Part shown: positions 1,017 through 7,025 of the stretch, in pieces
Position numbering within the stretch: position 1 is the first letter of the stretch
Layout of the letters: each line of letters starts with the position of its first letter
Assembly: GCF_003334765.1 (NCBI RefSeq)
Contig: NZ_QOWT01000058.1
Direction: 5' to 3' (one strand)
Length of the DNA: 10,459 nucleotides
Source of the DNA: Escherichia coli
Lineage (GTDB): Bacteria > Pseudomonadota > Gammaproteobacteria > Enterobacterales > Enterobacteriaceae
The notes under the pieces: generated by a model
What the model was told of the DNA's origin: nothing
The model's database searches: none
The model's input: only the letters and a program-made list of their open reading frames with translations
Translations under genes and position numbers: made by a program

Positions 1017-1447
1017 CGCTTCCAGTCTTCGCGGTCGTTGTCGATAACTTCTTTTTTTGCCCAGCGATGGATGCTGCCGTCAATGTTTCCGGCATCCACA
1101 TCACTAGGCCAGAGAGCGTAGGCCAGTTCGTCATCCAGTGTTTTCCATGTCTGCTTGTATTCGCGATGAATGGCAGCAATGACCGGGCTGATTTTTCCTG
1201 TTGAATTTTCAGTGTACTGTTGATTGGCTCTGGCGCGGGCGAGATCAACAACAGACGTGTATTTTCCGGTTTCCTTGCGTTCACCTTCGCGACGTTTTTT
1301 CCAGATGCGCATCTCTGCCTGAATTTCGGGCCATTTAGCACCAGGAATACATTTATGCTTAACCCACCCAATGGCGTGCAACTTAAGCTCCGGATACGGG
1401 TTATTCCCCTCTGAACAGGCGCGTAAGGACTGGCAAAACGCCCGCAA
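998..1447 (-). CDS. Hypothetical protein whose 3' end is cut by the IS3-family element. The last ~5 codons and the stop are IS-derived. The start is uncertain.
   Basis: This 149-codon ORF has a balanced, charged composition (…WPEIQAEMRIWKKRREGERKETGKYTSVVDLARARANQQY…DREDWKR|EVYWQ*), unlike the overlapping alternative frames. Its stop (998-1000) lies inside the IS terminal repeat. The first start in the ORF track is a TTG at 1447, preceded by GAGAG; an internal ATG sits at 1312. I do not recognise the family. Confidence 0.4.
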   Translation of the reverse strand: MRAFCQSLRACSEGNNPYPELKLHAIGWVKHKCIPGAKWPEIQAEMRIWKKRREGERKETGKYTSVVDLARARANQQYTENSTGKISPVIAAIHREYKQTWKTLDDELAYALWPSDVDAGNIDGSIHRWAKKEVIDNDREDWKREVYWQ

Positions 1448-1637
1448 AAAACTCTCGAGGGCAAAGGTGAAGAAACCTGCTGTGGTTGATCCGGACCTTA
1501 TCTGGTCATCACCTGACGGAGAAATACGTCGCTACGACAGTCGCCTAAACATAATCTGTCGCGAGTGCCGGAAGAGCGAAGTTATGCAGCGCATACTGGC
1601 TTTCTATCAGGGTAATTTTCAGGACGTGGCGCAGTGA
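1371..1637 (+). CDS. Ren-like protein; only the C-terminal part resembles lambda Ren. The start is uncertain (ATG 1371, or GTG 1467 preceded by GAGGG).
   Basis: The C-terminus ...NIICRECRKSEVMQRILAFYQG aligns with the remembered lambda Ren C-terminus ...NLVFKECRQSAAMKRVLAVYG at about 10/21 identities plus conservative changes. The stop overlaps the next gene's start as GTGA (1634-1637). The N-terminal 77 nt overlap the minus-strand ORF. Confidence 0.5.
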   Translation: MACNLSSGYGLFPSEQARKDWQNARKKLSRAKVKKPAVVDPDLIWSSPDGEIRRYDSRLNIICRECRKSEVMQRILAFYQGNFQDVAQ

Positions 1638-2123
1638 GTGCACCGGCAACCATTCTTGATATGTGCTGTGGCAGCCGCATGTTCTGGTTCGATAAGTCTG
1701 ACGAACGGGCGATATTCAGCGATATCAGAAAAGAAGGATACACATTACGCAATGGGAGACGCTTGATTATCAGCCCTGACATTATCGCAGATTTTCGTGC
1801 ATTATCATTTGCAGACGCATCTTTTTCGATGGTTGTATTAGACCCTCCGCATCTTGAGAGTGTTGGTGATAACGCCTGGATGGGAAAGAAATATGGACGG
1901 CTGAATAAAGATGCCTGGCGTGATGATTCGCGACAGAGATTTAAAGAAGCCTTTCGGGTGTTGAGGCCGCACGGCGTTCTGATTTTTTAATGGAATGAAA
2001 CGCAAATACCGGTAAGCCAGATTCTGGCACTGACAGACAGAAAACCTGTTATCTGTCAACGAACAGGGAAAAAACGATAAAACCCACTGGATTATTTTTA
2101 TGAAAGAGGCATCCAGTGAGTAG
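1634..2123 (+). pseudogene. SAM-dependent DNA methyltransferase (N6-adenine type, DPPH motif IV), interrupted by an in-frame TAA and probably by a later frameshift
   Basis: The motif I-like segment is ILDMCCGSRMFWFD and motif IV is VVLDPPH. TAA at 1988-1990 falls in ...HGVLIF*WNETQIPVSQILALTDRKPVICQRTGKKR*. At the A6 run (2069-2074), one fewer A would read on as ...GKNDKTHWIIFMKEASSE*, stopping at 2121-2123. Confidence 0.6.
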
Positions 2124-2252
2124 ATTCGTAAGGCTACAGATACGTATATCTGAATAATTAAATTCAGTTCTGTAAATAAAATTTAATCCTTAACCGGATG
2201 GATTTCTGCACCCTCAGAACATCAGGAGGCCGCCCGAAAGGGCGGTAGTGAA

Positions 2253-2435
2253 ATGCGAAAGTTCAAAATTATTATTGAAACGGGAATAGCTGGTGGAGAT
2301 TTTGAGGATGTATTCGAAGTGGACGATGACGCAACACCTGAGGAAATTCATGACGGAGCATAAGAAATTTTCTTTAACTACTGCAATTACTCATACCACG
2401 AAATAAAAGACGATGAGGAAGAACAAAGTGGCTGA
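2253..2435 (+). pseudogene. Small acidic phage ORF of 60 codons with an in-frame TAA at codon 37
   Basis: Reads MRKFKIIIETGIAGGDFEDVFEVDDDATPEEIHDGA*EIFFNYCNYSYHEIKDDEEEQSG*. The TAA is at 2361-2363. The 3' end overlaps the next ORF's start (GTGGCTGA). Confidence 0.45.
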
Positions 2436-2604
2436 TTTTTGTTCAGCTAAATATAACATCAGTTTTGAAGAGCGGGATGAACTATTAATGGACTATGGTG
2501 AGTTACGCGGTGGAAGTGCTGCTGATGTCGAATCCTAGCGTGATGACTATGAAGCGGGAAAAACTCCGGTCGAAGCATATTGTGATGAGTGGGGCGATGA
2601 ATGA
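2428..2604 (+). pseudogene. Small phage ORF with an in-frame TAG. The start is GTG 2428 or ATG 2413.
   Basis: Reads VADFCSAKYNISFEERDELLMDYGELRGGSAADVES*RDDYEAGKTPVEAYCDEWGDE*. The TAG is at 2536-2538. The stop overlaps the next start as ATGA (2601-2604). Confidence 0.4.
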
Positions 2605-2888
2605 GCGAGATTAATTATCAGGAAGGGCATGAAACGGCGGGGCAAGCAAAACCAGTGGCATGGCGATATCGCTACGTGAAAAAAGGCGTTACGGACTTTC
2701 AGGGGAAGTAGTGGTCTGGTGACTGGAAATATGTACCGAAAAAAGAGGATTGTAACGACAGGCCGAACTATCAAATTCAGGCCTTATTCACTGCCTCACC
2801 AGTCCCAGTTACATCAGAAGAACTGGTTAAAGCTGTGCACTTTTATGAACAACTAAAACGCGAAAATCCACCAACATCCGGCAACTAG
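2601..2888 (+). pseudogene. Small phage ORF of 95 codons with an in-frame TAG at codon 37
   Basis: Reads MSEINYQEGHETAGQAKPVAWRYRYVKKGVTDFQGK*WSGDWKYVPKKEDCNDRPNYQIQALFTASPVPVTSEELVKAVHFYEQLKRENPPTSGN*. The TAG is at 2709-2711. Confidence 0.45.
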
Positions 2889-3142
2889 ATTAATGGATTA
2901 ACTATGTCGGTTAAACGACCAGCCAACTGAAAAAGCGGAAACCTGATTACAGGTTGCCAGATAAGGCAATGAGCTACCTGGCGCGGAACGGACTGATAAG
3001 TATGGGGAATGTTTTACGATGAACCTTTAGACTAAAGAGTTTGTAACGCTATGTAAGTGATTTTTTCTGGTTTAGATATTTATATGTCCGGCCAAATTGA
3101 GGTGTGTTTAAATGTAATTGCACATTGATTGTAGGAGGAATA

Positions 3143-3322
3143 ATGAAAAACGCATTGCAGTTTTTGTTTGTTGCGTTCTGGTTGTTCGCATCATGTATGC
3201 CCATCATCTTCACAGCAAGGTATATGGAAAAAGTTGATGTTTTGATATTAATATTTGGATATATAAATGCCCTTTTTTTAGGGGTGTTCATGGCGGTCAT
3301 GTGCATTGAATACTGGCGGTAA
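3143..3322 (+). CDS. Small two-transmembrane-helix protein (59 aa), a moron-like accessory gene
   Basis: AGGAGG at 3133-3138 lies 4 nt before ATG 3143. The product is MKNALQFLFVAFWLFASCMPIIFTARYMEKVDVLILIFGYINALFLGVFMAVMCIEYWR, with two ~20-residue hydrophobic spans separated by a charged loop. The gene sits in a visibly AT-rich patch (~3040-3330). The ATG at 3104 from the ORF track has no SD. Confidence 0.6.
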   Translation: MKNALQFLFVAFWLFASCMPIIFTARYMEKVDVLILIFGYINALFLGVFMAVMCIEYWR

Positions 3323-3382
3323 ATACAGCGAACTCCATTGGTTTAGTTGGATATTTACTGTGCTGGACAAAAACGGTTTGCG

Positions 3383-3596
3383 GGGAAATCTTAGTTAAGT
3401 AGAATGACTGCGGGTGCTTGAGGCTATCTGCCTCGGGCATGGACACCAACGGCAGATAGAGAAAAGCCCCAGTTAACATTACGCGTCCTGCAAGACGCTT
3501 AACATTAATCTGAGGCCAATTTCATGCTAGACACATGTAGGTTAGCCTCTTACGTGCCGAAAGGCACGGAGAAGCAGGCTATTGTTAACACCAAGC
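3383..3596 (+). other. Hairpin-dense non-coding segment, a possible structured RNA or remnant, ending at the IS junction
   Basis: No ORF looks credible in any frame. There is a 9-bp stem at 3424-3432/3451-3459. A 5-bp stem at 3483-3487/3494-3498 is flanked by direct TTAACATTA copies (3473-3481 and 3499-3507). A 37-nt composite hairpin at 3544-3580 carries a GAAA tetraloop (AGCCT-CTT-a-CGTGCC GAAA GGCACG-gag-AAG-c-AGGCT). Confidence 0.3.
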
Positions 3597-5212
3597 TGTA
3601 ATGTCCCCTTTGAACCATTCTAAAATGTCCCCAGACAATTCTCTGGGGGATTTTTCATGATCAAAGAGACTGTTACGATGAGTCATAAGGAACTCCACCG
3701 ACTTCAGATTATTCAGGAACAAGCTGCGGCACGCATTGGCATTTCTATTCGGCAGGTTAAACGTCTGGTGCAACGGTATAGAAATGAAGGGCCTTCTGGT
3801 CTGGTTTCCCACCGACGTGGAAAGCGTCCTAATAATTCCTTTTCTACTGAATTCAGAGCAACAGTAATTTCACTCCTCAAAGGCCGTTACGCTGATTTTG
3901 GACCTACGTTTGCGTGCGAAAAATTGCGCGAGATACACGGTTTATCTTTATCCGTTGAAACTCTCAGAAAGTGGATGATAGAAGAGGGGTTATGGCGTGA
4001 ACGCCGTCGTAAAATTGCCCGTATATATCAACGCCGCATGCGACGACCATCTTACGGTGAACTGATCCAGATTGATGGCTCACCTCATGACTGGTTTGAA
4101 AATCGAGGCCCCAGATGTACACTGATCGTTTTCATTGATGATGCCACCAGTGCGTTGATGGCGTTGCGTTTTGTGCCTGCTGAAACAACCCGGGCTTACA
4201 TGGAAACCCTCCGGGGTTACCTTAATGATCATGGCGTACCGCTCGCTCTCTACTCTGATAGACACAGTATATTCAGGGTAAATAACCCAGAGCGGGAAGG
4301 TGAGCTGACCCAGTTCACTCGTGCGATAAAGACACTGGGCATCGAGCCAATCCATGCCAACAGCCCGCAGGCAAAAGGGCGGGTAGAGCGCGCCAATCAG
4401 ACACTACAGGACAGGCTGGTCAAAGAAATGCGGCTTCAGAATATCAGTGATATTGAAACAGCAAATGCATGGTTGCCGACCTTTATTGAAGCCTATAACA
4501 ACCGGTTCGCTACGTCGCCTCGTACTACTGATAATGCTCATCTTGATGTGCACCATTCTGAAGAGGAACTGGGTTATATCTTCAGCCTACAGGCGAAGCG
4601 CGTTCTGTCTAAAAATCTCACTTTCCAGTACAAAAGCAGTGCGTTTCAGGTACGCAGTGAGGGCCGGGGATATCGACTTAGGCATTCGGTTGTTACTGTA
4701 TGCGAGAACTTTGACGGTGAAATTAACGTTCTGTATGACGGGAAAGCGCTGGGCTGGGAAAAGTATGTTGATGGCCCGGAGCCTATACCACTGGATGATG
4801 AAAAGAGTGTCCATGAACGAGTGGATAATGCCCGTATTGATTTACGCTCAAAATACTATGTTAAACCTAAAGCTGACCATCCCTGGCTTACGCGCCGAAC
4901 GCAAAGTCATCAGCAAGTTAAGCCCCCGAAGTTACCTAAAAAGAAGCCTGATCCCGATAAAAAAGATTGAAACCAAGATCGATTCGGTTGAGTGCATATC
5001 CATTCATAGGGTAGATTCTTAAGTCGCGTTTCTGGTGTTCATTTTCGGGTGGTTTGTTACTTGTTTTACCGGGGATATGCCAGAAACGCGCTGAGTCAGT
5101 CTGGGCGGTGCGCGTAATGAGGCGTTATGGTAAATAGCCTATGCTAATGTCCGCTAAGAGCAAGAAGCGGAAGTTGGCAGTTTTGTGGACTGTCCCCACA
5201 AAAGTGACTACA
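3597..5212 (+). mobile_element. ISNCY-family (IS1202-group-like) insertion sequence; the boundaries are approximate
   Basis: It carries a single long DDE transposase ORF. The candidate ends are TGT... (3597) and ...ACA (5212), giving 1616 bp, which matches what I recall for the IS1202 group (TGT ends, 1.4-1.7 kb). The terminal repeats are only imperfect: TGTAATGTCCCCTTTG versus reverse-complement TGTAGTCACTTTTG, with a 2-nt gap. I found no flanking direct repeat. Confidence 0.5.
3657..4970 (+). CDS. ISNCY/IS1202-like transposase with an N-terminal HTH and an rve-type DDE core
   Basis: 437-aa ORF. The N-terminus MSHKELHRLQIIQ...GISIRQVKRLVQRYRNEGPSGLVSHRRGKRPNN is typical of proteins annotated as ISNCY family transposase. 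The DDE-region motifs are LIQIDGSPHDWF, ALYSDRHSIF and GRVERANQTLQDRL. GGGGGA lies 6 nt before ATG 3657; an alternative ATG is at 3678. Confidence 0.9.
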   Translation: MIKETVTMSHKELHRLQIIQEQAAARIGISIRQVKRLVQRYRNEGPSGLVSHRRGKRPNNSFSTEFRATVISLLKGRYADFGPTFACEKLREIHGLSLSVETLRKWMIEEGLWRERRRKIARIYQRRMRRPSYGELIQIDGSPHDWFENRGPRCTLIVFIDDATSALMALRFVPAETTRAYMETLRGYLNDHGVPLALYSDRHSIFRVNNPEREGELTQFTRAIKTLGIEPIHANSPQAKGRVERANQTLQDRLVKEMRLQNISDIETANAWLPTFIEAYNNRFATSPRTTDNAHLDVHHSEEELGYIFSLQAKRVLSKNLTFQYKSSAFQVRSEGRGYRLRHSVVTVCENFDGEINVLYDGKALGWEKYVDGPEPIPLDDEKSVHERVDNARIDLRSKYYVKPKADHPWLTRRTQSHQQVKPPKLPKKKPDPDKKD

Positions 5213-6798: not shown

Positions 6799-6869
6799 AC
6801 CAAAGCATGACATCTCTGTTTCGCACCGAAGGTGACACTTCTGCTTTGCGTTGACAGGAGAAGCAGGCT

Positions 6870-7025
6870 ATGAAGCAGCAAAAGGCGATGTTAATCGCCC
6901 TGATCGTCATCTGTTTAACCGTCATAGTGACGGCACTGGTAACGAGGAAAGACCTCTGCGAGGTACGAATCCGAACCGGCCAGACGGAGGTCGCTGTCTT
7001 CACAGCTTACGAACCTGAGGAGTAA
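6870..7025 (+). CDS. hokD: HokD (RelF), a Hok-family membrane toxin. It falls below the ORF-track length cutoff.
   Basis: Manual translation gives MKQQKAMLIALIVICLTVIVTALVTRKDLCEVRIRTGQTEVAVFTAYEPEE* (51 aa). GGAG lies upstream at 6856-6859. The hok-type context ggtgacacttctgctttgcgttgacaggagaagcaggctATG is present. Confidence 0.9.
   Translation: MKQQKAMLIALIVICLTVIVTALVTRKDLCEVRIRTGQTEVAVFTAYEPEE

Follow-up and report, generated by a model that had tools for sequence, protein, structure and literature searches.

Probable serial inactivation of four adjacent genes in an accessory block of a Qin-type prophage of Escherichia coli

Defective prophages of Escherichia coli, such as the lambdoid prophages of O157 Sakai, carry nonsense mutations, frameshifts and insertion sequence (IS) hits in accessory genes, in elements which look complete, are inherited and recombine. 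The nin genes of phage lambda are dispensable and can be removed by the nin5 deletion. Qin of E. coli K-12 presumably leads from dicC straight to ydfX/ydfW, without the block of genes that is the subject of this work. The window analysed here, a stretch of 10,459 nucleotides from an E. coli assembly (GCF_003334765.1, contig NZ_QOWT01000058.1), is of the same family as K-12 Qin, with which it shares, towards the right, ydfW, flxA, ydfV, relBE, hokD, rem, ydfU, ydfT/Q and cspF/cspB. Between a DUF977/LygF gene and a hok/sok remnant the window holds a block of four consecutive genes, encoding a methyltransferase and three small proteins (orfA, orfB and orfC), each of which is interrupted by an in-frame stop codon. 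All four are very probably pseudogenes, knocked out serially through commonplace point mutations and indels, while selection was relaxed, in a dispensable block of a Qin-type prophage, a finding that is already known in kind, as the RefSeq annotation by PGAP flags genes of the block as 'internal stop' or 'frameshifted'.

The four stops, TAA at 1988-1990, TAA at 2361-2363, TAG at 2536-2538 and TAG at 2709-2711, and a run of six A (A6) at 2069-2074 are present as in a preliminary description of the window, and its reading that the same frame continues plausibly after each stop holds: past each stop the sequence aligns in-frame, with 88-95% nucleotide identity, to the C-terminal regions of intact homologues, which identifies interrupted genes and not chance open reading frames (ORFs). 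The alignment to intact homologues that had been suggested as a check returned sense codons at all four positions, namely AAA, AAA, TGG and CAG or ATG. The methyltransferase gene, on the plus strand at 1634-2110 and encoding 157 amino acids (aa) when intact, has lost Lys119 by an AAA to TAA change at 1988-1990 and carries one additional A in the A-run at 2069-2074. Its intact homologues (L005, L014 and P0001; 157-162 aa) have AAA and a run of five A, so that the frameshift is a real +1 insertion and the -1 correction which the preliminary description had thought necessary is appropriate. PGAP annotates the gene in two related alleles (L008 and L009) as 'frameshifted; internal stop'. Residues 4-158 of the repaired protein match PHROG 954 'DNA methyltransferase' (E=3.6e-79), the match to Pfam Methyltransf_11 is sub-threshold, and a PDB sequence search found no sequence-related solved structure; the product is a putative small class I S-adenosylmethionine (SAM)-dependent phage DNA methyltransferase, with DNA as the substrate predicted from the PHROG label.

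Besides the methyltransferase, the three small genes are all hit at codon 37. orfA, a DUF7167 gene (2253-2435, plus strand; 60 aa when intact; Pfam E=1e-13), has TAA in place of the Lys37 codon AAA at 2361-2363, a codon which is AAA in five of five intact homologues, and bears the PGAP note 'internal stop'. orfB (2428-2604, plus strand), recognized by alignment to intact 58-aa homologues and by its match to phrog_519, encoded an acidic protein of 58 aa in which the Trp37 codon TGG has become TAG at 2536-2538; its start codon, ATG in all relatives, is GTG at 2428 in the window, and the gene is left out of the PGAP annotation in carriers. orfC (2601-3022, plus strand; phrog_660; 119-171 aa when intact), annotated by PGAP over this range as 'frameshifted; internal stop', has TAG at 2709-2711, a position occupied in intact homologues by CAG for Gln (L007, P0123 and P0124) or by ATG (L012). 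In pairwise alignment to the intact 171-aa gene of L012, approximately 90 nt of orfC are deleted near 2873-2885, with further indels, and the conserved C-terminal segment (...NGLIS...VLR and stop) is shifted to another frame and ends at 3022; the homologous frame thus runs on to about 3022, beyond position 2888 where the fourth ORF had been taken to end. Pfam, NCBIfam and PDB sequence searches returned no function for orfB or orfC and only 'methyltransferase' for the first gene. The changes which generated the stops are two A>T transversions (AAA to TAA), one G>A (TGG to TAG) and one C>T (in orfC), to which one insertion is to be added, and no single mutational signature fits this set. The earlier proposal that all stops arose by transitions from CAA, CAG or TGG fails at the two AAA codons; likewise, the impression of little other visible damage does not hold in view of the 3' deletion and the frameshifts of orfC and the ATG to GTG change at the start of orfB.

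Annotation of intact relatives gives overlaps of 4 nt for DUF977/methyltransferase, 8 nt for orfA/orfB and 4 nt for orfB/orfC, and the corresponding junctions are present in the window as GTGA at 1634, where the TGA of DUF977 overlaps the GTG start of the methyltransferase gene, as GTGGCTGA at 2428 and as ATGA at 2601. In homologues orfB starts with an ATG that aligns to GTG 2428 (overlap ATGGCTGA); GTG 2428 being the homologous start, the stops of all three small genes fall on codon 37, a pattern that had been predicted on condition of this start. Translational coupling, proposed beforehand for all four ORFs, does not extend from the methyltransferase to orfA, since the two are 142 nt apart and the spacer contains a separate Shine-Dalgarno sequence.

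The lesions are shared widely. Many E. coli chromosomes match the window at 100% identity across 10,385 nt, and of 5,426 complete genomes searched, 418 contain at least 80% of it. A fully repaired query of 1,254 nt found in the same genomes a best match of 99.6%, equal to five differences, and 61-mers with each of the four repaired codons had no full-length exact match, the best match always retaining one mismatch. The local background of these 61-mers is found in 506 genomes (orfB), in 1,144 (orfC) and in about 600 (orfA and the methyltransferase). All five lesions are common to alleles which are 1-1.4% diverged and have 10-13 other differences (L008 and L009; strains E105 and NCCP 15734). 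JGI metagenome contigs were scanned with an IUPAC pattern placing no constraint on the three stop bases of the small genes; these bases were T, A and T in 17 of 17 contigs matched, and the methyltransferase TAA together with A6 was found in all 16 contigs that extend to that gene. The same five lesions are also carried by two apparently complete 48-kb Qin-type prophages, GDAR2-2, located between rspB and a truncated ydfJ, and that of ECOR13, deposited as phage PhiR42_1, and the remaining phage genes of both are intact according to PGAP. Decay of a cryptic prophage, the explanation first offered, is upheld as pseudogene decay, but not with crypticity as its source, as the lesions were in place before the rest of the prophage was lost.

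Closer intact relatives were sought among 5.8 billion proteins, where for the methyltransferase nothing above 87% identity was found except P0005, a TAA to GAA variant from one contig with the frameshift kept. The metagenome contig with this change (L017) is one base away from window 1282-2771, with GAA for the methyltransferase TAA at 1988 and the A6 frameshift retained; judged from this combination, the stop has drifted back to sense in a still-dead gene. Two further proteins with Gln at codon 37, P0121 (98%) and P0126 (92%, representing 160 member sequences), look like intact orfC, but their own DNA has stops: the codon is TAG at the respective loci (L035 and L036), and the proteins are not translatable from their own contigs under the standard code. 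Both evidently stem from a gene caller using a code with TAG=Gln, and are thus spurious 'intact' proteins in a large protein collection.

The distribution of the lesions among relatives gives their order. The background of the orfC TAG occurs in 1,144 genomes, that of the orfB stop in 506. The orfC TAG is also found in L004, L006 and L011, whose orfA and orfB, approximately 10% divergent from the window's, are undamaged, and whose orfC (L004 2606-2922; L011 1650-2073) has, besides the shared TAG, an extra AA insertion upstream in its A-run, an instance of independent decay. One phage record annotates this AA-shifted orfC frame as an 85-aa ORF. L036, 95.5% identical to window 2292-3503, combines intact orfA (Lys37) and orfB (ATG start, Trp37) with the same orfC TAG and 3' deletion, and L035, 99.5% identical to window 1728-2873, has all stops with the 3' end of orfC undeleted. 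On this distribution orfC is the gene that died first, by the TAG at codon 37 and subsequently by the 3' deletion, and the lesions of the methyltransferase, orfA and orfB, that is, AAA to TAA twice, TGG to TAG, ATG to GTG at the start and the additional A in the A-run, followed later on the stem of the allele family. As the orfC stop is older and stands on backgrounds with intact orfA and orfB, a single burst is ruled out. Polarity, the loss of coupling after an upstream hit, was considered as the primary cause and rejected, the most downstream gene having died first.

Disabling changes have also been added within the allele family and elsewhere. IS1 lies within the methyltransferase gene of AH21 and CFSAN051542, two alleles have a 1-bp deletion at 2685, and a new stop occurs at Q142; independently, the methyltransferase homologue of strain 7784 (L013 1174-1647) has an internal stop of its own. 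Intact homologues, on the other side, are widespread (157, 60, 58 and 119-171 aa), and undamaged copies of each of the four genes occur commonly in other E. coli prophages. Sense codons in full-length homologues, heritable lesions and additional independent disabling lesions are therefore all on record for this block, as is typical of pseudogenes.

On the branch of the window, compared with intact relatives, 27 synonymous, 31 missense and 4 nonsense codon changes were counted. orfA and orfB together (11 missense, 4 synonymous) look neutral, the missense excess being strongest in these two, and the methyltransferase (13 missense, 17 synonymous) has changed as among intact relatives. Stops arise from approximately 4-6% of random substitutions in these genes, and a mixture of a constrained and a neutral phase, fitted to the missense-to-synonymous ratio, yields 22-38 neutral substitutions and 1.1-1.8 expected stops versus the four seen. 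Several observations speak against plain decay under relaxed selection. The four nonsense changes are 2-4 times the mixture expectation, with P(4 or more) of 0.03-0.10, a value uncorrected for the choice of the region by its stops. The ratio of non-synonymous to synonymous rates (dN/dS) of the window genes versus intact relatives, 0.10-0.37, is barely above the values of intact relatives, so that the neutral phase must have been short relative to the branch. Polymorphism within the family, with about 12 non-synonymous and 11 synonymous changes, is below the neutral non-synonymous expectation (P 0.005-0.10); these counts, like those on the branch, rest on few sites and are confounded by recombination. 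The shared codon index of the three small-gene stops has P = 1.3-2.3e-4, given one random nonsense hit per gene. Finally, the PGAP pseudogenes of GDAR2-2 (orfA, orfC and an ISNCY transposase gene) all lie within a stretch of about 3 kb of the 47-kb prophage, where PGAP leaves two of the four broken genes unflagged, the 118-aa methyltransferase being listed and orfB unannotated.

The nonsense excess is mild and does not need a special mechanism. For the non-synonymous deficit, a comparison of two complete-type copies (L009 and L016) is instructive, as 14 of their 27 differences fall within window 1703-2807, with 0 in 1.5 kb upstream and 1 in 2.6 kb downstream, which looks like a recombination tract that ends roughly at the block edges. 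Because differences cluster in one tract and several variant states in the family match functional relatives, imported, selection-filtered variation from functional alleles is likelier to be behind the deficit than constraint. The spacing of the stops by 175 and 173 nt equals the gene start-to-start distances, and their common position at codon 37 is probably a post hoc coincidence, as the preliminary description had already supposed of the regular spacing: there is no relation among the codons (AAA, TGG and CAG) or among their contexts, and orfC was hit earlier and independently. For the match itself there is no explanation; what the data establish is that separate events produced it. That some true constraint or mechanism acts at codon 37 is improbable and is contradicted by the differing ages of the stops, and paralogy or gene conversion among orfA, orfB and orfC was rejected as a source of the regularity, since the proteins and the codon-37 contexts are unrelated.

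Among the other explanations, adaptive loss would have the block costly or toxic in the lysogen and each knock-out positively selected, the methyltransferase and the small acidic proteins perhaps forming an anti-restriction or counter-defence cassette. Such selection would explain why damage is confined to the block and why nonsense changes exceed the neutral count, and it is in line with the low missense load that accompanies the lesions of the methyltransferase, with the restriction of the PGAP pseudogenes of complete prophages to some 3 kb, and with the independent hits to the same module in other prophages. Nevertheless it appears improbable: the enrichment is marginal and biased upward by the choice of a region for its stops, the events are spread over time, orfC having been lost well ahead of the other genes, selection would be better served by one deletion than by four hits, and each of the four genes is commonly intact in other E. 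coli prophages. That the stops are errors of sequencing or assembly, or that the short ORFs are the native conserved genes, hardly deserves credence, although the truncated methyltransferase of 118 aa figures in the PGAP annotation as a normal protein (WP_001310834.1); both are excluded by the recurrence of identical lesions across hundreds of independent complete genomes and 17 metagenome contigs, and full-length intact homologues are widespread.

Read-through, whether by a suppressor tRNA of host or phage, by a programmed mechanism or by stop reassignment, would maintain full-length expression and would account for the homologous frames after each stop, for the mild deficit of non-synonymous polymorphism and for the two related contigs that a metagenome caller translated with TAG=Gln. 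Yet the DNA of these contigs is not translatable under the standard code, both TAA and TAG are used, twice each, no one suppressor would fit the ancestral Lys, Lys, Trp and Gln, the +1 frameshift of the methyltransferase and the deletion and indels of orfC are not suppressible, and further disabling hits (IS1, the 1-bp deletion and the new stop) are tolerated. A search with ARAGORN, the check on suppressor tRNAs that had been recommended, yielded no tRNA gene for either the window or the complete 48-kb prophages L015 and L016, host genomes being outside the scan. The probability of read-through is minute. Just as implausible is a single directional episode, either a deaminase-type C>T/G>A hypermutation or an adenine-targeted mutagenesis, which could be invoked for four stops within 725 nt at intervals of 175 and 173 nt, and for the same A>T change in AAA at two of them. 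Several kinds of change are represented (A>T, A>T, G>A and C>T plus an insertion), the ages are unequal, with the orfC stop on backgrounds where orfA and orfB are intact, the intervals merely reproduce the distances between gene starts, and no repeat or template relates the three sites. The density of nonsense hits, which had been thought to warrant a check for such processes, comes down to a mild excess over the neutral expectation, with support neither for a directional process nor for suppression.

Serial knock-out by ordinary mutations would thus have left a dead block that was inherited and recombined as a whole and is by now a fixed feature of some 500 sequenced E. coli genomes, relaxed selection and not selection for loss probably being behind the fixation. 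The complete copies may be, or may recently have been, viable phages in which lesions elsewhere were purged and the dispensable, nin-like block was carried dead. A dead accessory block of 1.4 kb is thus carried unchanged in many genomes, among them ones with Qin-type prophages that look complete. The block also shows that death of neighbouring genes can come singly rather than together. Lessons for annotation are that PGAP keeps the 118-aa methyltransferase and omits orfB, and that TAG=Gln calling seeds databases with spurious 'intact' proteins. Beyond such housekeeping, the importance is small. Literature on PhiR42_1 and ECOR prophages and on pseudogenes of the Qin prophage was searched, and nothing relevant was found.

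By its gene order and near-identity with annotated Qin genes, and by the ydfJ/rspB locus of the complete copy, the window is part of a Qin-type lambdoid prophage of E. coli. In the RefSeq annotation of FORC 064, the left part reads IS600 fragment, minus-strand exonuclease fragment, 5'-truncated DUF977 and 'class I SAM-dependent methyltransferase', the middle reads DUF7167 pseudogene ('internal stop'), hypothetical pseudogene ('frameshifted; internal stop') and partial ISNCY transposase, and the right part ydfW, flxA, ydfV, relB, relE, hokD, rem, ydfU, ydfT (Q) and cspF. In the window, the fragment of IS600, an IS3-family element, spans about 77-973 and the exonuclease fragment 998-1387 on the minus strand; the latter is fused to the 3' part of the DUF977/LygF gene (1388-1637, plus strand; Pfam DUF977 E=7e-15), for which PGAP notes 'DUF977, missing N-terminus'. 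Homology to intact DUF977 genes starts at 1388, the 5' part having been lost at a deletion junction near this position. The complete copies carry an integrase gene, dicB/dicA/dicC, a YdaT-family gene, a replication gene, LygF/DUF977 and the same dead block, as well as a full lambda-like set of lysis, head and tail genes. Compared with these, the IS600 and exonuclease fragments and the junction near 1388 indicate that the dicB-dicA-dicC, YdaT and replication region has been deleted in this strain.

Upstream of the small genes, an AGGAGG and a GC-rich hairpin (GCCGCCC-GAAA-GGGCGG[U]) occupy 2223-2252 on the plus strand, as read from the sequence and with a minimum-free-energy fold of -16.9 kcal/mol. 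The AGGAGG is located 24 nt upstream of the orfA ATG with the hairpin in between, and the hairpin is kept in five related loci (L004, L006, L007, L011 and L012), with one C-to-T change that retains a G-U pair. This segment is a candidate for an independent translation start region of the small-gene trio and may act as a hairpin-bridged ribosome-binding site.

Downstream of the block, an ISNCY (IS1202/ISEsa1-like) transposase ORF of 437 aa is found at 3657-4970 on the plus strand; as PGAP calls the transposase partial (missing C-terminus) in all carriers, the mobile element adjoining the block also appears decayed. An Rfam match to sok (RF01794, 104 bits) is located at 3412-3583 on the plus strand. 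In relatives that lack relBE, collinearity with the window ends at 3582 and is regained at 6856, directly ahead of the hokD ORF (hokD side, 6856-7025), which points to the 3.27-kb segment 3583-6855, with the ISNCY transposase gene, ydfW, flxA, ydfV, relB and relE, as an insertion that split an ancestral hok/sok locus. The segment is bounded by a 15-nt direct repeat, GGAGAAGCAGGCTAT. Such a split would explain why hokD (relF) stands behind relBE without sok and leader.

In comparison with known systems, the window's copy differs from K-12 Qin in that the immunity and replication region has been lost, with IS600 and the junction near 1388 in its place, while the dead block has been kept. Like the nin region of lambda, which lies between P and Q, the block has a delayed-early position between replication genes and the Q antiterminator and consists of small, packed, overlapping ORFs with ATGA-type junctions in a mosaic arrangement; unlike in lambda, the genes are unrelated by name to ninA-ninH, and point lesions are found instead of a deletion. 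With the Rac-type early region, the complete copies share a YdaT-family gene, a replication-organiser gene and DUF977/LygF upstream; in Rac-like phages the block downstream of LygF is variable, and the four-fold inactivation is confined to the allele family of the window. From the pseudogenes of defective E. coli prophages the block shows no substantive difference, and only the three adjacent stops at codon 37 are unusual.

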